From positions 742,920 through 806,919 of the forward strand of contig NW_024055852.1 in assembly GCF_902713615.1 (NCBI RefSeq): a stretch of DNA of 64,000 nucleotides, given 5' to 3'. A model generated the notes under the pieces. That model made no database searches and had not been told where the DNA came from. It saw nothing but the letters and a program-made list of their open reading frames with translations. The DNA is from Scyliorhinus canicula (Eukaryota). The translations under genes were made by a program, and so were the position numbers. Below are positions 38,107 through 53,199 of the stretch, piece after piece (the first letter of the stretch is position 1; every line of letters starts with the position of its first letter).

Positions 38107-39177
38107 ATGACCAGATTCATTCAGCTCAATTTCACAACCTGCCTTTGTGTTTTTGTGCTTCTCTCTCACTCCCTATTTTCTGTTTTCAATCAGTTTCACA
38201 GGGTTTTCGAAGGGCAGGATTCAAAGATCTGGAAACTCAAACCAAGCATCACATCAGGATCTGACAGAGTCCTCAACTTATCACATCCTGAATATCATCG
38301 TACTTTGAACATGGAAGGAAAAAGCATTGTTCACAGTGGGGAGAAACCGAACACGTGTTGTGTGTGTGGACGAGGATTCGCTCGATCATCAGGCCTCACA
38401 AGCCACAAATGCAGTCACACTGAGGAGAAACCGTGGAAATGTGCGGACTGTGGGAAAGGATTCACTTCCCCATCCAAGCTGGAAACACATCGACGCAGTC
38501 ACACTGGGGAGAGGCCATTCACCTGCTCCAAGTGTGGGAAGGGATTTACTCAGTCATCCACTCTGTCCATACACCAGCGATTTCACTCCAGGGAGAGACC
38601 ATTCACCTGCTCCAAATGTGGGAAGGGATTCCCTCAGTCATCCGCTCTGTCTACACACCAGCAAATTCACACTGGGGAGAGACCATTCCCCTGCTCCAAA
38701 TGTGGGAAGGGATTCATTCAGTCATCCGCTCTGTCCACACACCAGCGAATTCACACTGGGGAGAGACCATTCACCTGCTCCAAGTGTGGGAAGGGATTTG
38801 CTATTTCATCCAACCTGCAGAAGCATCAGCGAGTTCACACTAATGAGAGACCGTTTCAATGTCCAGACTGCGGGAAGTGCTATAAAAGTTCTGGGGAACT
38901 GATGAGCCATCAACGTGTTCACACTGACGAGAAACCGTACACGTGCTCTTACTGCGGGACTGGGTTCAGACAATCATCTCACCTCACTGTACATCAGCGA
39001 ATTCACACTGGGGAGAGGCCATTCACCTGCTCTAAGTGTGGGAAGGGATTCATTCAGTTATCCAATCTGCAGAGGCACCAGCGAATTCACACTGGGGAGA
39101 AACCATTCACCTGTGAGTGTGGGAAGGGATTCACCACATCAATCCTCCTGCTGAGACACCAACGTGGCCATAAGTAA
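38107..39177 (+). CDS. C2H2 zinc-finger protein, 10 tandem fingers (likely ATG 38311 or spliced entry near 38194)
   Basis: Open frame with repeated C-x2-C-x12-H-x3-H and TGE(K/R)P linkers; no KRAB, SCAN or BTB domain visible in this exon. Confidence 0.92.
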
Positions 39178-39429
39178 TCACAGTGATTGAATTTTGCTGT
39201 TCCTCACATTCAGGACTGAACATGTTCATTTGTGTCTCTTTCTGCTGATAACAATTCCAGCCCATTTACAGGGGCTAACATTCTGGCTAAAAGTCAAATA
39301 AATCAGATTTGTGTTAAATCCGCAGTGTGTTGAAATATCTGACACAAGTTAGTTCCTTTTGAAGTTCTCTCGCTCTCCCCTCTCTTCCATCCTCACCTCC
39401 AACAAGAAGTGTGAGGAGCTTGTGGAGCT

Positions 39430-40329: not shown

Positions 40330-41388
40330 TGTTTTTCTAAATTCACCTCTCTGTTTTAGAATTCCCCTTATACCAAAGACCAAAAGGGCCAATATTCTAA
40401 AACGGCGAACAGGGATTCTCCCTCCCTGACTCCAGTACAGGCCTCTGTGAGTGCTATTCGGGTCAAACTCTCCTTTCAAGTTATCCCCCGGTATAACTCA
40501 TACCTTCACTGAAGAATTTTACTTACTTACCCCTTAATAGCATCGATGTCCCGGGTCCTGCGTTCTTAAGGAAGTGAAGTAAGCTAATAACCACTTTTTC
40601 AGGTTAAATTATTTTATTATTAACATACTCTTTTCTATTTCATTAAATTAAAAACATTATTTACTTTTGGATGTTGTCTGGTTGGTTGTTGAGGCCTTCA
40701 GACTCTCTCTCTCTCTCTTTCAATCCTCCTGGTCATCTCTCCTGGTGCTGTTTTCTCTTTTTCTCCTGGTCTTCTGTCTTCATTGGCTGCTGCTCCCTCG
40801 CATTCTTCTCCTGGGCCGTCTGCTCTTGGGTCTCTCCTGCCGCTGGGCCGCTCCTCTCCTGGGCCTTCCCGCTCCTGGGCCTTCCTGCCGCTGGGCCGTC
40901 TCGCTGCTGTCTCTTCTGCTTCTTCCTCCTTCTGGTGCCGCTGGTGTTCTGGTGCTGGTTTCTTTGTTCCTGCTGTTCTGCCTCGTGGGGAGAGAGAGAG
41001 GAGGAGCCCTGGAAGCCCGCACTGGCTGATCTCTTTGTTCCTGCTGTTCTGCCTCGTGGGGAGAGAGAGAGGAGGAGCCCTGGAAGCCCGCGCTGGCTGA
41101 TCTCTGGCGCGAGATCGGGACCTCCGATAAGGATCGGACTTCGGGTCTTAAAGGGGCAGTCCATCACAATTTTTCAACAGCACAAAGAAATTTTTTAAAA
41201 CTTTTTTCTTTTCCCTTTCTCCTGCTGCAGGTTGTAATAACCATTCTGATAGACTGAAATTGCTGCCCACAGTTTCTGTGCTCTTCAGCTGCCACCAACC
41301 TCTTGTGGGATCTTTCCCTGCACTCTCCCCGATCAGATATTGGCAGACCTCTATGTTTCAAATGACACATTCTGTATTTTCCAGAACA
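40330..41388 (-). repeat. 3' LTR (1059 bp)
   Basis: Matches 48683-49741; AATAAA at 40618-40613; TATA-like TTTAAG near 41150; internal 2 x 71-bp direct repeat 40961-41102; preceded by short purine tract AAGACGGGG. Confidence 0.96.
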
Positions 41389-42786
41389 CCCCGTCTTGAC
41401 ATTTGAAACATTACTATAATTTGGTTTATTGTCCCCCCATCCAATTGTACTAACATACATCCCTGATCATTGTCATTTGTATGCATATCACAGACCAGTG
41501 TCAATACGAGTCTTGTTTTCCGTTCCAGTCCAACTTGTTTTCCATTTCTGATTGGAATGTGGTAATTGTGATATCTTGTACCCCCCACTGATCCCCTTGT
41601 CTTATTAATTTAAAATGTTCAATTGATCCTGCTTGTATTCCTAACTTCCCCATTAATGTCTAACATTGTCGTGAATCATGTAAGTCTGCCAACCCCTGGT
41701 TTACATGAGAGAACATCTTTCTGACAACGTGTATATTTTTCATTTCAGCATTTACAAAACCACATTGAACCGTCTCTTTTTTTTTCTTCCCAAACAAATT
41801 CTCCCTATTGTTCTGTACATAGTAAAATTTTTATCTTATCTTAACACCTTATTCATTACCTAACCAATAGACTGTGTGTTACACTTTACGTATTTTCAAC
41901 TGTTAACAATTTAATATCAATATCGAAACATCGCTTCTTGGCTTTTTGGAACAATAATTATTACATACTAAACTAACCCTCTATTAAAACATTCACAGTT
42001 TAGAAATGCGGATCAAGTTATTTAACGACACACATACCCCCCGTATCATATATATACAACAGTCCCTATCAATTTACATGAAAATAAAAAAAATTTTCTT
42101 ATCAACGATTATAGCTCTTCAATGCAATATTGTTTTGTTGCATTGGTAACAATTTTCCCGCCGTAGTATCAAGCTACTAAAATTCTTAACCTATTATCAT
42201 TTATCATATTGGGGTTCCTCGTCAGTCGCTGCTATCTGCTGCCGAGACCTTAATGATTCCACCGCGTAGTACATACCCCATGGAGACCACAGATCATCCA
42301 TCAACTAATGTCCAGTTAGAGATGTCTGACCGGGGGTTTCACTGTCCAGTTATAATTTGATATTCTAATTTGTTTCTAACCCGTAAAGTTTTCCTCCGGG
42401 TTCTGTCATTTAATTCCCTCAAATTTGTAGCCAATTATATCATTAGTTTCCCCCCAATCCTGTCGAACAGATTCTTCTCTGGAGTGTAGTTCTCTTCCTT
42501 CTTGCGAACTGGTTTGTTATTGGAGTGTAGTTCTCTTCCTTCTTGCGAACTGGTTTGTTATTAATTTTTTCCACCTGAAAAAGCAAATGAACAGATCAAG
42601 GGTGGAGAGGGCCCTATTCTTTAATTCGGATTATCCCAGAAGTGCCCTCTCCAGGACTTCCGGATTCCTTTTGCCATCATTTCTTTTTGAACTGGTTTAT
42701 ATTCCATATCCTTGATGTACATCATACCATTAAGGCCTGTCAAGCCTCCTTCTGTCATTTCACCCCTGAGTGAGATTCGAAGAATC

Positions 42787-45700
42787 TCAAACTCCTCTGA
42801 TGCTCACTGGGTCGTGTGTTTCAAGCCTGAAACAATTTATTTTGCTCCAGACACCATGCTTCTCTAATTCAATTGTATGTGTACCCAGAATCTGAACAAT
42901 CTTGTCTTTACATTTTACAGTCTCACGAATGATTTTCCCCGCAGTCTTAGTTGGTAACTTTACCCAAACTTCGTCTCCTACTTGATAATTCCCAGATTCA
43001 CTTGGGTCTCCTTGTCCCTGGGGGACAGAGGTTCCAAGGTTGCTATTAAGATCAAATACTATTCTTTCAATGTCTTTATCCCAGCCTTTATTATTCTGAT
43101 TCTTTATGATCCAATCCTTTACTTTTCTTACAGACCTCTCAGCCATTCCATTACTCTCAGGTGCATATTTCACGGCCCAATTGATTGTTATTCCTCTGTC
43201 AGCACAAAAGTTAATAACAGTATTGTTTCTAAAGTGTGGCGCGTTGTCCATTCGGATCGATTCTGGTCTACCTCTGGAGGTCATCATTTCTGCCAATACC
43301 CTTTTGGTTGTGGCTCCATTTGCTTTGCTGGTTGCTCTAAGGTCACTTTCTCCCGTGCAGCTATCAGCTTTGACTAAAAAATACAAATTACCTTTGCTGC
43401 TTCTGGGAAAAAGTGGTCCTGCATAATCTAATGACCATTCCTGCATTGGTTTCTCAGTTTTTATGCTCCCATATGTTTTATTTCCTCTCTGTCCTCCACA
43501 GGCCATACATCTCTCACATTTTCTCCTTACTGCAGTTAAATGTTGTCTCCAATAGGCTATTTTAATTCCCAACTTCTTCAACTCCCTTGCGACTACAACA
43601 TGACCCCCATGTCCTGTGGCTTCATGTACTTGCTTAATTATCATTTGATGGTCGGCTGCTGAGTTCCCAAGAGTCCCCAAGATTATTGTCCTAAGTCTGG
43701 CTAATTCATCCACTTCCTGATTCCCCTTACACAGTTCCCCAATTCCTTTTGTGTGTGCTTTTTGATGAATTGTCTGGATCTCCATATCGGCTAAAATTTT
43801 ATCTATCTCTTCCCACTGTTCTTTCTGTTCCAGTAGTTTATTTCTACCGTTCGTCCAACCGTTTAGTTTCCAAAACTCCAAATCTTTCTCCAATCCTTGC
43901 TGCACGAAAAAGCTATCGGTTACAACGGTAACTTCCTGCAGCTTTCGCTGGTGACACTCCTTTAACCCTTGCAATACTCCCTCTACCTCAGCTGTCTGAG
44001 CTGATCCAATGATTATTCCCTGTTCCTCCACTACTATGTTTCCTGAATTTTTTAAAATGAATGCCCATCTGGCTTGTTCTTCGTCCTTCTTGACTTTACT
44101 ACCATCAGTATATAATACCCAAGCATTCACCAACTCCGTTTTACTAACTGGCTCATCAAGTTTCTGTCCCTTTTGAATGTTATGAACAAACATTAAGTCA
44201 GGGTTTAGAAGAATGGTTTCCCATCTTTCCCATCGAGCTGTATTCGCGCCTTGCTGGCAAATCTGTCTCTTGGTTAGCTCCTTTAACTCCAAAAACTCAG
44301 TTGTGACATAAATTTTCTTACCACCCGACAAGTTTTCTATCTCTGCTATTCTCTTTGTTATAGCTGCTAGGCATTTCTCGATGTTTGAAAACTTTTGTTC
44401 AGCTCTCGACCAGTTTCCTGTCAGATGTTTGATAGGTGTCTGATTGCTAAGATTAGCAAGTACCATACCATATCCATTTTTATAGATGTCTAATTTAATG
44501 CTTAAATCATCCTCTTCTTGTCTCCCAACTAATGACCCCGATATCGCAATTGCTGTCTTTAACTGATCTAACCCTCTCTGGGCCTCGCTGGTCCAAATAA
44601 AATCCCCTTTCAAGGTTTGATAAATGGCTTTAGCATAGAGGCTGAAGTCCTTCACTACTGGCCTTAGATATCCCAACATTCCCATTATTTTTTGAACCCC
44701 TTTTTTCGAAACAGGCGCAGTAATTTCAGCTATCTTCTTCCTCATTTCAATACTGGCCTCTCTACCTTCCTTCGATACTGAATAACCCAAATAGTTGACT
44801 TCGCTTCTCCCAATTTGACATTTCTTTAGCCCTATTTTAAAGCCTGCTTCGCTAAGTGTCTTAATGATCCTGGCCACTCTTTCCACATGTTTGTCCTGAT
44901 CGTCATCTCCAATTAATATATCATCGATATATACTAAAGCCAAATCATCTTGAATCAGCTCCCTGATTATTGCCTGAAAGTGATTTGGAGAATTAACATA
45001 TCCCTGTGGAAGTCTACAATATACATAATGCTTAGTTCCAAAGGTGAATGCTGTTTTCTCCCTGCTGTCTGGGTCTAATGGAACACTCCAGAATCCATTC
45101 GCCAAATCTATACTAGTTAAGTAAGTTTTTCCCGCGACTTGCTCTAAGGTAGCTTGTGGACTTATTAAATATCTCTTGTCCTTCTTTGTGACTTTATTTA
45201 AAGCTTTGTAATTTGTTACCATTCTAAATGTACCATCTGGTTTTCTTACTACCTGAAGTGGACTATTTGTTGAGGCATATGTGACCCCTTGAATAATCCC
45301 CTGCTGCTCCAATTCCTTGATTATTATCTCCAGCTCGCTCTTAGCTCCTCTAGGCAAAGGATACTGTTTTTGAGGTCTGTGTTGTCCCCCGTGAATTGCG
45401 TGTTGAAATTGCTGGCTAATCAAACCTGTGTCATTCTTACCTATCGCTAGGTTTGCTCCCATCAGTACTTCTTCCATCTTCTTCCAAGCTTCGTCATTTA
45501 AAATACTTTTCTCTTTCTGTTTCCTTATTTCCTCCATGTTATCAATTGGTTTTAATACCCTTATTTTTCCAGTATCTATTTTTATTAAATCTTTCCCTGC
45601 CATCAGATTATCAGTTCCTGATATTGCCAGTAATTCTCCCAATCTAACTTCTGGTCTAATATCCTTATTCCCTAATGCTCCTTCTACTATGTATTTCTTT

Positions 45701-45855
45701 CCTGTCGGATTTCCAGCTTCTTCCCTTATCATTGATATCTCAGCCCCTGTGTCCACTATAAATCTTTCCCCCTTGTATACTACTACTAATTCTCCTTTGT
45801 CTGTTTCTGTTGTTAGATTTTGTATAGCCTGTTTAAGGGGAGAAGCCGAATCCTG
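42787..45855 (-). CDS. pol: Pol polyprotein (protease, RT, tether/degenerate RNase H, RNase H, integrase); 1022 open codons following the gag stop
   Basis: DTGA; DLANGFW, RLPQGYVNSP, YIDD; LYTDGS/AEVE/TDS/VDELA; H-x4-H..C-x2-C; LDYAGP, MDN-x35-E. Frame open 33 codons upstream of the called GTG start. Confidence 0.96.
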   Translation of the reverse strand, partial: QDSASPLKQAIQNLTTETDKGELVVVYKGERFIVDTGAEISMIREEAGNPTGKKYIVEGALGNKDIRPEVRLGELLAISGTDNLMAGKDLIKIDTGKIRVLKPIDNMEEIRKQKEKSILNDEAWKKMEEVLMGANLAIGKNDTGLISQQFQHAIHGGQHRPQKQYPLPRGAKSELEIIIKELEQQGIIQGVTYASTNSPLQVVRKPDGTFRMVTNYKALNKVTKKDKRYLISPQATLEQVAGKTYLTSIDLANGFWSVPLDPDSREKTAFTFGTKHYVYCRLPQGYVNSPNHFQAIIRELIQDDLALVYIDDILIGDDDQDKHVERVARIIKTLSEAGFKIGLKKCQIGRSEVNYLGYSVSKEGREASIEMRKKIAEITAPVSKKGVQKIMGMLGYLRPVVKDFSLYAKAIYQTLKGDFIWTSEAQRGLDQLKTAIAISGSLVGRQEEDDLSIKLDIYKNGYGMVLANLSNQTPIKHLTGNWSRAEQKFSNIEKCLAAITKRIAEIENLSGGKKIYVTTEFLELKELTKRQICQQGANTARWERWETILLNPDLMFVHNIQKGQKLDEPVSKTELVNAWVLYTDGSKVKKDEEQARWAFILKNSGNIVVEEQGIIIGSAQTAEVEGVLQGLKECHQRKLQEVTVVTDSFFVQQGLEKDLEFWKLNGWTNGRNKLLEQKEQWEEIDKILADMEIQTIHQKAHTKGIGELCKGNQEVDELARLRTIILGTLGNSAADHQMIIKQVHEATGHGGHVVVARELKKLGIKIAYWRQHLTAVRRKCERCMACGGQRGNKTYGSIKTEKPMQEWSLDYAGPLFPRSSKGNLYFLVKADSCTGESDLRATSKANGATTKRVLAEMMTSRGRPESIRMDNAPHFRNNTVINFCADRGITINWAVKYAPESNGMAERSVRKVKDWIIKNQNNKGWDKDIERIVFDLNSNLGTSVPQGQGDPSESGNYQVGDEVWVKLPTKTAGKIIRETVKCKDKIVQILGTHTIELEKHGVWSKINCFRLETHDPVSIRGV

Positions 45856-48075
45856 TCAATATATACCGGGGCCTCCTCTGCCTCCTCCTCGGAATCCCCC
45901 TCGCAAGCGTCCCGGATACCCTTCTGGTGGTTGATATCTACCTTGCTCAATCCTCCCCTGACCAGCTGCTCTTCTTCTCCTATCCTCAATGAATCTGTCT
46001 CTTTCCTCCCGACTGAGGGCTAGGAATTGTTCCCTTGGTAAATAATCTAGATTTTGTGGTGGAGGTGGCCCTTGTGACCGCAAATTATACCCATGTTGTG
46101 GCATTGCTGGTTGTGCTGGATTCTGTTCCGATTTGTCAGGTATCTGTCGGTTTGGTGGTCTAATCTGAGCATTTTGTGTTGAAACATTATTTTGGGCAGC
46201 TGCTCTTTTTTGTTCCCCTTTTGTGTGTTTATCCTTAAATGCTTTGCCTGCCAAATCCAATTTAACCAGTTCTCTTCCTATTTCTCTTCTAGAGGTCGTT
46301 AACAGTATTGTTGAGAGGCTTTTTCCTCCTGGAATCTTGGATCCTAATTCCCTCAGGAATCTGACTACATCGACCCCCTCTTCCTTATTAACCTCATATA
46401 TTCGGTCGATATATGGTGTGAGGTGTTCCCCTGCATATGCTGCCTCTGTCATCTCTTTCATTAAATTAGCTCTCTCATTTCCCAAATCTAACTCATTTAT
46501 TAAATCTGAGACTTCGCCTGTAACTATTTCTCCCACTGTATGTAAATCAATCAATTTGGTGGATTCTCCTGATGCCCCCATTTTCTTCGCTAACTGTTTT
46601 AACCTCTGTGAATACTCAACTCTACTCTCCCCATGTTTCTTTGGGCCTGCTGTCTTCATTACGGCTGCTACTATTTTATACGGTACCATGCCTCCCTGTC
46701 CTTCCTCTGGACCTGGTGTAAATGACTGAACTATTTTCTCACTTCTGGGGCATGGTGTTCTCAAAGGGGCACCTCTATCTGGGTCCCTATATTCGGAGAA
46801 ATGTATCCGTCGTCGTACCGGTTCTTCCTCAAAATAGGGGGTACTATGTTGTGCAAACTCTTCCACCGATTCTATATATTCTTCAAACCTTGCACTTGGT
46901 ACTTGGCTATCTCGTGGAGCATAACTTGCCCTATCCATTGGAGTAGGAGCAGTTTTTTGGGGTCTTGGACGATTCTGTATCCTTTCCTGTGGTCTTAATG
47001 CTGCTATTATCTGGCCTTGTGTTTCTGTGCTGTTCCTTACCCTACTCATGGCTCTTCCGAAACTGTCATACCCTTTGCTCATTTGCCAAATTTTAGCTTT
47101 GGGGGTAACGTTTGGTAATTCTAGTAATTTCGTAGAATCAATTTGTTGACTTCCTCCTATTATTTCTCCTATTTTAAGTCCCCTAGCTGTAACCTCTCTT
47201 TCCCATCCTTCCTGATCTCTATGGTGTACCATTTCTGCTTCTGGATTATAAATATAATACGGTACATCCTTATTTACTGGTTGATAAGTGGAAGGTTGTT
47301 GTTGTTTCCAGTGATCGCTATAATCCCCTATTTCTAATGGTTTAGAATTTTTTCTATTCCCTATTCCTCTCTTTTGTTTGACTATTTCCTCATTCTCGGA
47401 TGAGGATGATAATTCTTCCTGTCCCATCACAGGAGGCGCCATAATCCCAACTATGCCTTGTTCCTCTTCACTTTCTTGTGGTTCAAAGAAATGATCGATA
47501 AACGCTTCTTTCTTATGTGTGGCAGATTGCTGAGGCCAATTTTCTTCCTGAAACAGACTTGGCTCTGGGTATTGAAAATTGTATCCCGTTGGGAAATTTT
47601 CACAGGGGTCCGAATTCTCTCGGCTATCTGATTCTAGGCCTGATTCCTCGTCACTTTCCATTTCTAATGGTTCATTTTTCTGCAGTTGTTTTATATATTT
47701 GCCTACCACTTCAGAGTTACTTTTGTGTTTACTAGGGATCTGTATTATTTCTGTCCTGTTTACTCCGTCAATGATTTTAATCAGTTTGGAACACACTTTG
47801 CCCACTTGAGCAGCTGCATGCTTCTGTCTGTGTCCAAATACGATTAGTGATTCAGCTCGCTTTTCAAATGCAAACTGACAAAGTGCTTTAAGGACCCTGA
47901 CAGAATCTGTATATTGCAGGGCTTTTGGCACTCTAACAAAGAGGGAGATATCTCCGTCTGGATACATATCTCTTGTCCAGGATTTCTTTTGCTCTTTTAA
48001 TTTCTTCCATTCCCTTTTCATTTCTACATTTCTCTTGACCGTATCCCAGGGCATGAGAATTACCCTAATTGCCAT
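45856..48075 (-). CDS. gag: Gag-like polyprotein, 739 aa from ATG 48075
   Basis: Long ORF between PBS and pol; AAAATGG Kozak context; acidic and proline-rich middle; Gly/Arg-rich C-terminus; no CCHC knuckle. Identity is by position, not a recognised motif. Confidence 0.85.
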   Translation of the reverse strand: MAIRVILMPWDTVKRNVEMKREWKKLKEQKKSWTRDMYPDGDISLFVRVPKALQYTDSVRVLKALCQFAFEKRAESLIVFGHRQKHAAAQVGKVCSKLIKIIDGVNRTEIIQIPSKHKSNSEVVGKYIKQLQKNEPLEMESDEESGLESDSRENSDPCENFPTGYNFQYPEPSLFQEENWPQQSATHKKEAFIDHFFEPQESEEEQGIVGIMAPPVMGQEELSSSSENEEIVKQKRGIGNRKNSKPLEIGDYSDHWKQQQPSTYQPVNKDVPYYIYNPEAEMVHHRDQEGWEREVTARGLKIGEIIGGSQQIDSTKLLELPNVTPKAKIWQMSKGYDSFGRAMSRVRNSTETQGQIIAALRPQERIQNRPRPQKTAPTPMDRASYAPRDSQVPSARFEEYIESVEEFAQHSTPYFEEEPVRRRIHFSEYRDPDRGAPLRTPCPRSEKIVQSFTPGPEEGQGGMVPYKIVAAVMKTAGPKKHGESRVEYSQRLKQLAKKMGASGESTKLIDLHTVGEIVTGEVSDLINELDLGNERANLMKEMTEAAYAGEHLTPYIDRIYEVNKEEGVDVVRFLRELGSKIPGGKSLSTILLTTSRREIGRELVKLDLAGKAFKDKHTKGEQKRAAAQNNVSTQNAQIRPPNRQIPDKSEQNPAQPAMPQHGYNLRSQGPPPPQNLDYLPREQFLALSREERDRFIEDRRRRAAGQGRIEQGRYQPPEGYPGRLRGGFRGGGRGGPGIY

Positions 48076-48500
48076 TTTCGGATTTTTAGTTCTGTTCCTG
48101 GTTGTCCCTTTCAGGTGCACTCTGAAATTAAGGATAAGTACCCTTTCTGGGCCCTATCCAAGGCTGACCAAGGCACTATCTTCCTGCTTTAGTTAAGGGT
48201 CGATTGATTATTGGTTTCTGAAGATAAGCGTCCCTATTTTCCAGAAAATGTCCGCACAATCTGCCTTACCCTGAGGATGATTTATTCTTTAGCCCCTTTT
48301 ACCAGTAATGGATGCAAGATTTTAGTGCTGTCACCAAAATGTCTTGCAGACTTTTCTCGGGGTCAGTATCTTCTAGTCTACTGATTTTCACACCCAACCT
48401 GAGCTTCTGTCCCCTCGATCCACAGAATATCCTTACAAAAGCCAATCACACATGACTTTCCAGACTAAACTCGGCAGGTAAAGTCTGACTCACACATAGA

Positions 48501-48663
48501 CTAGAAACTTCTAATATTCTAGCCTTTGTGCCGGTTAGAAACTTCTAATATTCCAACCGTTTCTTGGGAACTAGAAACTTCTAATATTCTAGCCCCTACT
48601 CTTCTTAACTAGAAACTTCTAATATTCTAGCCTCGCTTTACCTAGAAACTTCTAATATTCTAG
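48501..48663 (-). repeat. Five 22-nt hairpin repeats with invariant 10-nt loop, directly 3' of the PBS
   Basis: Copies at 48501, 48535, 48571, 48609, 48642; RNA CUAGAA-UAUUAGAAGU-UUCUAG; spacers 12, 14, 16, 11 nt. Confidence 0.92.
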
Positions 48664-48664
48664 G

Positions 48665-48682
48665 CCTCCACGCTGGGCGCCA
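48665..48682 (-). promoter_or_regulatory. Primer-binding site, tRNA-Lys(CUU)/Lys1,2-like
   Basis: TGGCGCCCAGCGTGGAGG directly after the LTR CA; 15/18 to TGGCGCCCAACGTGGGGC, and one difference is a G-U wobble. Confidence 0.85.
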
Positions 48683-49741
48683 TGTTTTTCTAAATTCACC
48701 TCTCTGTTTTAGAATTCCCCTTATACCAAAGACCAAAAGGGCCAATATTCTAAAACGGCGAACAGGGATTCTCCCTCCCTGACTCCAGTACAGGCCTCTG
48801 TGAGTGCTATTCGGGTCAAACTCTCCTTTCAAGTTATCCCCCGGTATAACTCATACCTTCACTGAAGAATTTTACTTACTTACCCCTTAATAGCATCGAT
48901 GTCCCGGGTCCTGCGTTCTTAAGGAAGTGAAGTAAGCTAATAACCACTTTTTCAGGTTAAATTATTTTATTATTAACATACTCTTTTCTATTTCATTAAA
49001 TTAAAAACATTATTTACTTTTGGATGTTGTCTGGTTGGTTGTTGAGGCCTTCAGACTCTCTCTCTCTCTCTTTCAATCCTCCTGGTCATCTCTCCTGGTG
49101 CTGTTTTCTCTTTTTCTCCTGGTCTTCTGTCTTCATTGGCTGCTGCTCCCTCGCATTCTTCTCCTGGGCCGTCTGCTCTTGGGTCTCTCCTGCCGCTGGG
49201 CCGCTCCTCTCCTGGGCCTTCCCGCTCCTGGGCCTTCCTGCCGCTGGGCCGTCTCGCTGCTTTCTCTTCTGCTTCTTCCTCCTTCTGGTGCCGCTGGTGT
49301 TCTGGTGCTGGTTTCTTTGTTCCTGCTGTTCTGCCTCGTGGGGAGAGAGAGAGGAGGAGCCCTGGAAGCCCGCGCTGGCTGATCTCTTTGTTCCTGCTGT
49401 TCTGCCTCGTGGGGAGAGAGAGAGGAGGAGCCCTGGAAGCCCGCGCTGGCTGATCTCTGGCGCGAGATCGGGACCTCCGATAAGGATCGGACTTCGGGTC
49501 TTAAAGGGGCAGTCCATCACAATTTTTCAACAGCACAAAGAAATTTTTTAAAACTTTTTTCTTTTCCCTTTCTCCTGCTGCAGGTTGTAATAACCATTCT
49601 GATAGACTGAAATTGCTGCCCACAGTTTCTGTGCTCTTCAGCTGCCACCAACCTCTTGTGGGATCTTTCCCTGCACTCTCCCCGATCAGATATTGGCAGA
49701 CCTCTATGTTTCAAATGACACATTCTGTATTTTCCAGAACA
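48683..49741 (-). repeat. 5' LTR (1059 bp)
   Basis: Same length as the 3' LTR; only differences found are 49262/40909 and 49374/41021; donor-like G|GTAAGT at 48883. Confidence 0.96.
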
Positions 49742-50739
49742 GGAAGGAGAATTGGAGACAGATTGGAAGAACTCAGACTCCAGGCACATTAACCAAAAAC
49801 AGATGGAATATCTGAGGGGACAACAGGTCGAACTAAGGAAGTTCTACCTGTTCCCTAAAATACACAAACACCCAACGCATGGACAGTACCAGGGAAATAT
49901 CCCCATACAGACCCATCAGATCAGACTGTGAGAGAGAAAAATCCTACTGAATAGCTGAAACATCAACACACTGCTACCTGTAGTTTTTAAAATAAATTTA
50001 GAGTATCCAATTCATTTTTTCCAATTAAGGGGAAATTGAGTGACCAATCTACCTACCCTGCACATTTTTGGGTTGTGGGGGCAAAACCCACGCAAACACG
50101 GGGAGAATGTGCAAACTCCACATGGACAGTGACCCAGAGCCGGGAACGAACCTGGGACCTCAGCGCCGTGATGCAGTAATGCTAACCACCGTGCTGCATC
50201 TGCTCCTGGTAGTTGATGGAATAGTGGTTCAATAAATATAATTTGTGGATTAAAAATGTGTGTAATATAGAGTAAAAACAGGAAATAATAATCATATTTA
50301 TTATTGTCACAAGTAGGCTGACATTAACACTGCAATGAAGTTGCTGTGAAAATCCCCTAGTCACCACACTCCGGCGCCTGTTCGGGTACACTGAGGGACA
50401 ATTCAGAATGTCCAAATTACCTAACAGCACGTCTTTCAGAACTTTGGGAGGAAACCAAAGCACCCGGAGGAAACCCACGCAGACACAGGGAGAATGTGCA
50501 GATTCCGCACAGTGACCCAAGCCGGGACTCAAACCTTGGACTCTGAAGCTGTGAAGCAACAGTGGTAACCACTGTGCTACGGTGCTGCCCGATGCTGGAT
50601 GAACTCAACAGGTTTGGCAGCATCATAGAATCCCTACAGTGCAGAAGGAGGCCATTAGGCCCATCGAGTTAGCACTAACTATACAAAAGAGCACCCCACC
50701 CAGGTGTACTTACCATGTCCTCTCCCCATAACCCCAAAA

Positions 50740-51680
50740 GGAGAGGCACAAGGACACCGGCACCATGGACAAACCGTGGAAATGTGGGGACTGAGGGAAG
50801 GGATTCCTATCCCCGTCTGTGCTGGAAATCCATCGGCGCAGTCACACCGGGGAAAGGCCATTCACCTGCTCCGAGTGTGGGGAGAGGTTCACTCGACTAA
50901 CCCCCACCTCACTACACACCAACTTGTTCACTCTGACACCAAACCTTTTAAATGTTCCGACTGTGAGAAGAGCTTTAAAAGAAAAGAACATCTGCTGACA
51001 CACCAGCGAGTTCACACCAGGGAGAGGCCGTACACCTGCTCTGAGTGTGGGAAAGGATTCACTCAGTTATCCAGCTTTCTGTTACACCAGCGAGTTCACA
51101 CTGGGGAGAAACCAGTTGCCTGCCCAAATGTGGGATGGCATTCACTCAGGTACGCAAACTGTTGGATCACCAGCGAGTTCACACTGGGGAGAGACCATTC
51201 ACTTGTTCTGTGTGTGGGAAGGGATTCACTCAGTTATCAATCCCGATGAGACACCAGAGCATTCACACTGGGGGGGGGGGGGGGGGGGGGGGGGGTTGGG
51301 GAAACCATTCACCTGCCTGAAGTCTGGGAAGGGATTCACTCAGTCTGCCCACCTCACTTCACACCAACGTGTTCACTCTGACACGAGACCTTTTAAATGT
51401 TCCGCCTGTGAGAAGAGCTTCAAAGGCAAAATGGATCTGCTGATTCACCAGCGCAGTCACACTGGAGAGAGGCCATTCACCTGCTCCGTGTGTGGGAAGG
51501 GATTCACTCAGCATTCCCTCCGGCTGAAACACCAGCGCATTCACACCAGGGAGGGAGCGTTTATCTGTTCCCTTTGTGGGAAGGGATTCATTCGGTCATC
51601 TACCCTGCAGACACACCAGCGAGTTCACAAGTGCCTCCAGGACTCTGCTGTTATTGATGTTAATTACATCCAGGACTGAG
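50740..51680 (+). pseudogene. C2H2 zinc-finger pseudogene (frameshifted)
   Basis: Fingers split across ORFs 50704-51249, 51045-51320 and 51047-51679; 26-G run at 51270-51295 within a linker; extra finger fragment 51900-52050. Confidence 0.85.
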
Positions 51681-53199
51681 CCTAAATCACATCCAGGACA
51701 GAACCATGTTCATTCTGACAGCTGGAGTTTGTTTGAGTTGATGTTAATAATCCCTGAAACTGAGATTGGTGGTTGATAGCCGGCACTGACCCAATGGGAC
51801 AAAGGGCCTTAGAACATAGAACATAGAACACTACAGCGCAGTACGGGCCCTTCGGCCCTCGATGTTGCATCGTTTTGTGCTGTAAAACTCTAGAACTCTA
51901 ACCCATCTCACTTCACACCAATATGTTCACTCTGACACAAGACATTTTGTGTGTTCTGACTGTGAGAAGAGCTTTCGGAGCCAAATGGACCAGCTTACTC
52001 ACCAACGGTGTTCACAGTGGAGACCGTTCACTGCTCCGAGAATGGGAGGGGATTGTTTTCCGGTTGCGCCCCCCCCCCCCCCCCAACTCGTCCTCAACCC
52101 GAGACTGGAAATTCCCGCCCAAGGTAAAGGACCTTGAAAGGGGCGACACAGTAGCACAGTGATTAGCACTGTTGCTTCGATTCCGGTTTCAGTCACTGTA
52201 TGTGCAGAGTCTGCACGTTCTCCCCATTTCTGCGTGGGTTTCCTCCAGGTGCTCCGGTTTCCCCCCCCCCCCCACAAATCACGAAAGACGTGCTGTTAGT
52301 TAATTTGGACATTGTCATGTGAGAGTACCTTTAAGAATTGGGTGCTTATCAAATAGCTGCAGTGATATCAGAGTGTGGGTGGAGCTGGGCTGTCTGTCTT
52401 CACTGCAGCTATTTGATAAACACCCATTTTTTAAAGGTACTCTCACATGACAATTCTGAATTCTCCCTCTGTACCTGAACAGACACCGGAATGTGCTGAC
52501 TGGGGCTTTTCACAGCAACTTCATTGCAGTGTTAATGTAAGACTACTTGTGACAATAAAGATTAGGATTATAAAAAAAATGTTCCAGCAAATCTCCATCC
52601 CACCCACGATGATTCCCACGGCTGGAAATATGACCCCAACAAATGGGATGAAGCCAAATCTTTAAAAGTCAAAGTCTTTATTTCAAATTGTTGCCGTGCT
52701 GTCATGGAAAGGGTTAACTTCTCTGCTTGTTTACAAAAGGGAAGAGGAAACATTCACAAAGCTTCCCACAGCTTGTGAGCTCCGAAACATAACTTCAAGG
52801 CTGAAGTTTACCTTCAGGGATTGAAACATTTTGGTTCCTTTTACAATTGTACCCATAAATTGTGATTCACACTGAAAGGTTTACTTTCACTCAGTAATTA
52901 GAACATTTCACTTTCTCAGTACTGACATTTTAGATCAAATCCCAATTGTTCTCTTCCCTTGTAGCTGGTGTGTGGAGAAGATCATGTTCACTGTAGATCT
53001 GTCAGCACAGAAACCGCACTGTGCTTCTGGATAAACTCAGTCTGCAAGTAGATGAATCTTTTAAACATCACCCAAGTGAAGGTCTTCCCCTGACTCTAAG
53101 GAGTGAGATGTCCCTGTAGTTGATGCTGTCTCCTCTGTCACTGCTGTTTTTATTGCATCACACATGTTCCATGGACCAGTCTCACAGCCCAAAAGGGGA

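Follow-up and report, generated by a model that had tools for sequence, protein, structure and literature searches.

Downstream of the primer binding site of an LTR element in Scyliorhinus canicula, a vertebrate with a 4.2-Gb genome, lies a series of short inverted repeats. This raises the question of whether the repeats form an RNA structure under selection, and of what would read such a structure. We analysed a 64,000-nt stretch of contig NW_024055852.1 (positions 742,920 to 806,919, assembly GCF_902713615.1), here called the window, and all coordinates below refer to it.

The host element is a young, foamy-like retroelement

The element lies on the minus strand (49741-40330) and is bounded by a 5' LTR of 1059 bp with TG...CA ends (48683-49741) and a 3' LTR (40330-41388). 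Pairwise comparison of the LTRs showed identity at 1057 of 1059 positions; these 2 mismatches, together with a 4-bp target-site duplication (TTCC), indicate that the element is very young. The primer binding site is of the tRNA-Lys(CUU) type (48665-48682, minus strand) and sits directly 5' of the array. It matches the version in sister copies at 15 of 18 bases, and three of the four host loci whose genes fit the complement of the copies' primer site are called tRNA-Lys(ctt). A motif scan found a consensus-like candidate splice donor, G/GTAAGT, in the LTR (48878-48884, minus strand), about 200 nt upstream of the primer site.

The gag ORF (45856-48075, minus strand; 739 aa from its ATG) is followed by a pol frame (42787-45855, minus strand) with RT, a degenerate RNase H-like tether, RNase H and integrase, which is the retroviral domain order. 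Both genes share one frame across their junction (45853-45858), whereas foamy viruses make Pol from its own spliced mRNA; among 19 pol-bearing copies, a stop at the junction is absent in 11, present in 6 and unresolved in 2. The best solved relatives of Pol were foamy virus PR-RT (265-279 bits), followed by Ty3 (151) and MLV (100). Gag has a Gly-Arg-rich tail and no Cys-His motif, in agreement with the initial annotation, which had described a Gag without zinc knuckles. It also carries HGYNLR, similar to the foamy chromatin-binding motif GYNLR (PMC6669568); here and below, statements on published systems follow the accessible portions of the cited papers. Searches of Gag against Pfam, PDB and Atlas assigned nothing, a fold search returned no match, and a single-sequence structure model reached a pLDDT of 44. 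No env-sized ORF was found between pol and the 3' LTR. By similarity and features, rather than by an RT tree with named references, we classify the element as an env-less foamy-like ERV, with lokiretrovirus as a formal alternative. Spumaretrovirinae proper was rejected because there is no env-sized ORF and pol is in frame with gag.

Contigs covering the element came from sequencing runs of which three were guessed to be RNA and one DNA, giving nothing firm on expression. No related locus was confirmed in viral contigs, and metagenome contigs gave 9 short, distant matches (25-48% over parts of Pol). When the host genome was searched with a distant Pol (P0005), this ERV family alone was recovered, so that no more remote leaders were found.

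Five predicted hairpins follow the primer site

Five copies of a 22-nt unit core, CTAGAA-TATTAGAAGT-TTCTAG, were located 3' of the primer site on the minus strand, at 48663-48642, 48630-48609, 48592-48571, 48556-48535 and 48522-48501; the span first annotated (48501-48682) takes in the primer site as well. Counted from the primer site, hairpin 1 (48640-48665) has an 8-bp stem and the loop UAUUAGAAGU, and shares the last primer-site base. Hairpin 2 (48607-48632) has an 8-bp stem with two G-U pairs, hairpin 3 (48567-48596) a 10-bp stem, hairpin 4 (48532-48559) a 9-bp stem with a U-A swap and a G-U pair, and hairpin 5 (48492-48531) a 9-bp stem that extends by a further 5 bp beyond one mismatch. 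Two more hairpins lie downstream on the same strand: hairpin 6 (48461-48487), with a different loop, and hairpin 7 (48363-48384), with the 10-nt loop GACUAGAAGA and three swapped stem pairs.

These details bear out most of what had been noted for the window. The loop is identical in all five units, and the spacers (11-16 nt), although dissimilar, lengthen the stems by 2, 2, 4, 3 and 3 bp, within the 2-4 bp described. The unit at 48556-48535, which had been called copy 2 and is the fourth from the primer site, does read TTGGAA/TTCTAA, with C-G replaced by U-A and A-U by G-U. This compensatory change is, however, a single inherited event within the window.

Folded on the sense strand, the array reached -57.7 kcal/mol (z -4.93), a value that none of 200 shuffles matched, and the antisense fold was weaker (-36, z -3.66). 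Core pair probabilities were 0.71-1.0 in a 950-nt context, and an alternative fold with a small AGUU tetraloop was much weaker (-1.4 to -2.7 versus -7 to -12).

Unit number varies across the family

An 18-mer from the unit had 2,166 exact matches in the genome versus 0 for the reversed control, indicating that the array sequence is not due to chance, and a primer-site pattern had 338 matches. We fetched 57 loci from the first 100 primer-site matches listed (28/30 on contig 1); loci fetched later were chosen to favour primer-site variants. Arrays of 2-12 units, pol-less copies included, were present at 53 of the 57, and the other four comprised one sister-family locus with a single hairpin and three loci without internal family sequence. 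Every main-family copy with internal sequence in the fetched set had at least two units. The whole range of 2-12 units occurred inside the 17-row clade that contains the window copy, and copies with identical LTR ends differed by 7 versus 12 units. The array had been described as multivalent, which suits the 2-12 units of the family, but the number is labile and falls to one unit in the sister family. Some units are chimeric, combining 5' and 3' flanks of different types, which suggests template switching. Left out of the counts were L045 (an error-rich near-duplicate of L044) and L055, L075 and L080 (no internal family sequence); fixed-length matching misregisters an old terminal unit (GGAA/TTCC, 9-nt loop) and misses the 21-nt sister units.

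Among 44 two-LTR copies, most of pol was kept in 18 and not in 26. The main-family pol-less two-LTR copies had lost nearly all of gag and pol, and every one of them (24/24) retained 4-6 units; this retention in non-autonomous derivatives is not specific to the array, since these copies also kept the remainder of the leader and the sequence beyond pol. At least 7 units were found in 9 of 18 pol-bearing copies versus 0 of 24 pol-less copies, a comparison in which the lineages are non-independent and the direction is unrooted. Seven young copies lost hairpins 6 and 7 and retained 5-7 units.

Stem changes favour pairing on the sense strand

We tabulated stem pairs in a young set of 35 copies with LTR pairs about 97% or more identical (193 units, with 3 units bearing small deletions left out). 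The six core pairs comprised 1106 Watson-Crick, 45 G-U, 0 A-C and 7 other cells, and the two flanking pairs 136 Watson-Crick, 236 G-U, 0 A-C and 14 other. The earlier observation that the wobble works on the minus strand only thus extends family-wide in young copies, where G-U is seen and A-C is not. For 66 of the 67 elements, the sense fold was better than the antisense fold. A>G and T>C changes outside the array were about equal in 44 copies (pol, 55/1147 vs 24/692; gag, 43/839 vs 35/441), indicating that the G-U-only asymmetry of the stems is not a general strand bias.

Pairing was then compared with shuffles, whose figures are not probabilities, and whose counts overstate events, because the rows are related. 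In 28 non-redundant unit types, 82.9% of cells paired versus 74.7% after shuffling (0/500), slid registers gave 23-54%, and cells changed on both sides numbered 20 versus 7.7 in shuffles. Pairs with a two-sided change numbered 4, a count reached by 50 of 500 shuffles and so not above them. For the 27 flank types common to at least two elements, the first flanking pair formed in 89% versus 50% shuffled and the second in 93% versus 90%, the latter not above shuffles; together they gave 25 Watson-Crick, 24 G-U, 0 A-C and 5 other cells.

Several compensatory swaps were identified. Core pair 1 changes from C-G to U-A, core pair 4 from G-C to A-U (L069 and L168) and core pair 3 from A-U to C-G (sister family). 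Hairpin 6 differs between lineages as CAGACT/AGTCTG versus CAAACT/AGTTTG, its two commonest forms occurring in 17 and 22 copies, and hairpin 7 shows two further swaps among copies. The claim of covariation in a selected RNA element thus gains support from the family-wide data, not from the single unit on which it had been based; the proposed comparison across copies showed pairing kept by several swaps, with the number of covarying pairs within the range of shuffles. Some evidence points the other way: a G-A break of pair 1 has spread to 5 young copies, and old singleton stem changes are of the G-U and A-C types alike. All recurrent A>G stem changes fall within sense-strand UAG triplets. ADAR favours a 5'-UAN context (PMC11994451), and some of these changes could be fixed RNA-editing events and not selected wobbles; even so, fixed edits would still imply an RNA duplex. 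Given the G-U/A-C asymmetry, the several swapped pairs, the sister hairpin and the likely diverged sixth unit described below, we consider on sequence grounds that the array very probably forms a selected sense-strand RNA hairpin.

The loop persists on changed stems

The loop had been described as invariant, and this held in the window and in 190 of 193 young units, but not in older subfamilies. There, loop identity per element was 0.70-0.99, values that repeat shuffling inflates, in leaders that are 72-79% identical to the window after the array, and quite different loops (AGUUAGCUGU, AAUUGGGCAU) occur on the same stem.

The sister family, a distant one, has one hairpin, whose loop UAUAGAAGU is nearly that of the main family. 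In L154 the hairpin reads CTCGAA-TATAGAAGT-TTCGAG; the stem is intact in L155, has wobbles in L160 and is degenerate in L051, L156 and L157. Gag of the sister family is 36-48% identical to that of the main family. Over 700 nt of sister leader, the best DNA match consisted of the primer site and the hairpin, and most of the leader was unalignable. The loop of hairpin 7 has the same A-Y-UAGAA-R register as the units on a stem with three changed pairs, so hairpin 7 (48363-48384) is likely a diverged sixth unit.

Candidate functions of the array

The initial annotation had proposed a Gag-binding packaging or dimerisation signal. We give about even odds to the first of these, namely that the array is a multivalent Gag-binding packaging signal of a zinc-knuckle-less Gag. 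Each unit would fold in vivo on the genomic RNA as a stem holding a 10-nt purine-rich loop with the core YUAGAAR, and the loops would be repeated sites at which the element's own Gag selects unspliced RNA for packaging. Stems change without loss of pairing, and the loop recurs on stems that differ; this points to the loop as the part read by a protein, presumably Gag, with the stems as scaffolds. Unit number would rise or fall when reverse transcription switches template from one core to another identical one. The array lies, as a packaging signal would, between the primer site and gag, and is sense-structured with covariation. Because it is 3' of both the splice-donor-like site and the primer site, its position corresponds to that of foamy CAS-I, a region with dimer-linkage and Pol-encapsidation sites in which Gag-specific motifs are undefined (PMC5035957). 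A looped purine stretch serves as a Gag site in MMTV (PMC8096270). The higher unit numbers of pol-bearing copies (at least 7 in 9/18 versus 0/24 pol-less) also allow a more speculative extension, which we think doubtful, in which a foamy-type Gag RNA motif was amplified from one to twelve hairpins as pol-bearing elements and pol-less parasites competed for Gag.

The main rival explanation is a dimer-linkage switch, in which the hairpins would shift register into intermolecular duplexes and zip two genomes together. The loop repeats the 5' arm (UAGAA), and together with the 3' arm it makes a pseudo-palindrome of 14-16 nt (UUAGAAGUUUCUAG). In the dimer register, pairing holds in 95.9% of cells, and in one older lineage two loop changes turn both dimer wobbles into Watson-Crick pairs (CTAGAAATTTCTAG). 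Both unit arms hold CUAG, as does the centre of the foamy SII palindrome UCCUAGGA (PMC5874298), and MoMuLV DIS-1 and DIS-2 shift register in this manner (PMC7599994). An arm-swapped homodimer was predicted to be 6.6 kcal/mol better than two monomers, but arm swapping is possible for any hairpin. Moreover, the dimer register shows 0 two-sided changes and its covariation was equalled in 327 of 500 shuffles, and two hairpins (-14 to -25) are more stable than the palindromic duplex (-10.6 to -12.2). The palindrome is A-G-broken in the sister family and absent in hairpin 7, both of which keep the loop, and the recurrent loop changes A8C and G6A also break it. A dimer switch seems unlikely, if worth keeping in view. 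Binding of the loops by a host RNA-binding protein, which would help to export the unspliced RNA from the nucleus, suppress its splicing or control its translation, shares the structural evidence of Gag binding. The loop contains UAG and GAAG motifs, for which hnRNP A1, Musashi and SR proteins have affinity. That the loop was kept while Gag diverged (about 40% identity) would suit a host partner that evolves slowly and somewhat favours this explanation, and export of foamy genomic RNA needs host factors at unknown elements (PMC5035957). Against it, the array abuts the primer site in all subfamilies, as packaging regions typically do, and we regard a host reader as rather unlikely.

The same proximity could point to Pol recruitment or initiation of reverse transcription. 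Foamy PES and PARM are purine-rich motifs that bind Pol and dimerise protease, PES elements occur in CAS-I and CAS-II (PMC5035957), and here purine-rich loops adjoin the primer site and hairpin 1 overlaps its last base. Since gag and pol share a frame, however, Pol would enter particles with Gag and would need no RNA bridge, which makes this function improbable. At the DNA level, every one of the five units contains a heat-shock-element dyad, aGAAgtTTCt, and one older variant matches CnnGAAnnTTCnnG, so a transcription-factor array could be imagined; leader repeat arrays bind DNA proteins in other LTR elements, for example the gypsy insulator. A heat-shock element consists of three in-phase nGAAn pentamers, but the units have two and no in-phase third, the 5' arm covaries with the 3' arm although it is out of heat-shock phase, hairpin 7 lacks the dyad, and a G-U-only asymmetry is meaningless in duplex DNA. 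We judge such an array highly improbable. Just as poor a prospect is one functional hairpin with neutral extra copies homogenised by template switching. It would account for the chimeric units, the differing numbers among near-identical copies and the single unit of the sister family. Yet each of five unit types, whose spacers are unrelated, rebuilt a stem extension of its own, and main-family copies with internal sequence never drop under two units.

Comparison with known leader elements

The array resembles foamy CAS-I in lying between gag and a primer site of the tRNA-Lys1,2 type, and its element resembles foamy viruses in a related Pol, a GYNLR-bearing Gag without zinc knuckles and a CUAG-centred symmetry as in SII. 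It differs in being a tandem array of 2-12 units where single sites are described for foamy CAS-I, in the absence of the exact UCCUAGGA palindrome and of env and accessory ORFs, and in having gag and pol in one frame. The MoMuLV core encapsidation signal, with its DIS-1/DIS-2 pseudo-palindromes (PMC7599994) and tandem SL-C/SL-D, likewise places several hairpins with repeated protein sites 3' of the primer site, and shares with the array a possible register shift into an intermolecular duplex; there, however, a zinc-knuckle NC binds UCUG, the hairpin number is fixed and the sequences are unlike. In MMTV, purines are shown in a loop near the primer site, but at a single site and with a zinc-knuckle Gag (PMC8096270). 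By its features the element is like the FLERVs of fish and sharks, which have a foamy-related pol, mostly a tRNA-Lys primer site and a 4-nt target-site duplication (PMC5210030, PMC5512871), whereas fully described FLERVs have env and often accessory genes, both absent here.

The accessible main text of PMC5210030, PMC5512871, PMC8922424, PMC8672886 and PMC5035971 describes no leader hairpin array, and in the literature covered, mostly outside subscription papers and repeat databases, we found no tandem leader hairpin array in a foamy-like ERV. Rfam gave no family: the best hit scored 17 bits (E 2.8), where the threshold was 57. Retroviral leaders are known to carry structured, repeated hairpins; what is new is an array expandable from 1 to 12 units with a candidate motif for a knuckle-less Gag. 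Which RNA motifs a foamy-type Gag reads is an open question, because foamy Gags without zinc knuckles appear to bind RNA unselectively (PMC5035957). The family offers a defined 22-nt candidate with natural stem swaps, loop variants and a dosage series of 1-12 copies. If the array were instead a host-factor or dimer element, an aquatic foamy-like lineage would still have a clearly delimited cis element in it.

Other features of the element and its surroundings

A short island near the start of pol (about 45530-45700 in the window) survives in about 40% of pol-less copies, and many such copies keep the 3' end of pol with the downstream region (42500-43000). This suggests either additional cis elements comparable to foamy CAS-II or a single deletion that the copies inherited. 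The 1.4 kb between pol and the 3' LTR (41389-42786) has no long ORF and is kept in most pol-less copies; it is possibly an env remnant or a cis region. In L033, L048, L058, L082, L161 and L162, two or three primer-site-like sequences stand in tandem before the array, and some of the first primer sites in these tandem leaders reach sequence complementary to the tRNA T-arm. Within the LTR, a 16-bp repeat in five copies and a 71-bp duplication (49164-49458, and in the 3' LTR) vary between copies of the element.

The element is flanked by C2H2 zinc-finger arrays of 84-bp repeats (38300-39200 and 50650-52000), and the array at 50659-51679 appears frameshifted. Nested inverted repeats at 50288-52571 are likely oppositely oriented short interspersed elements.
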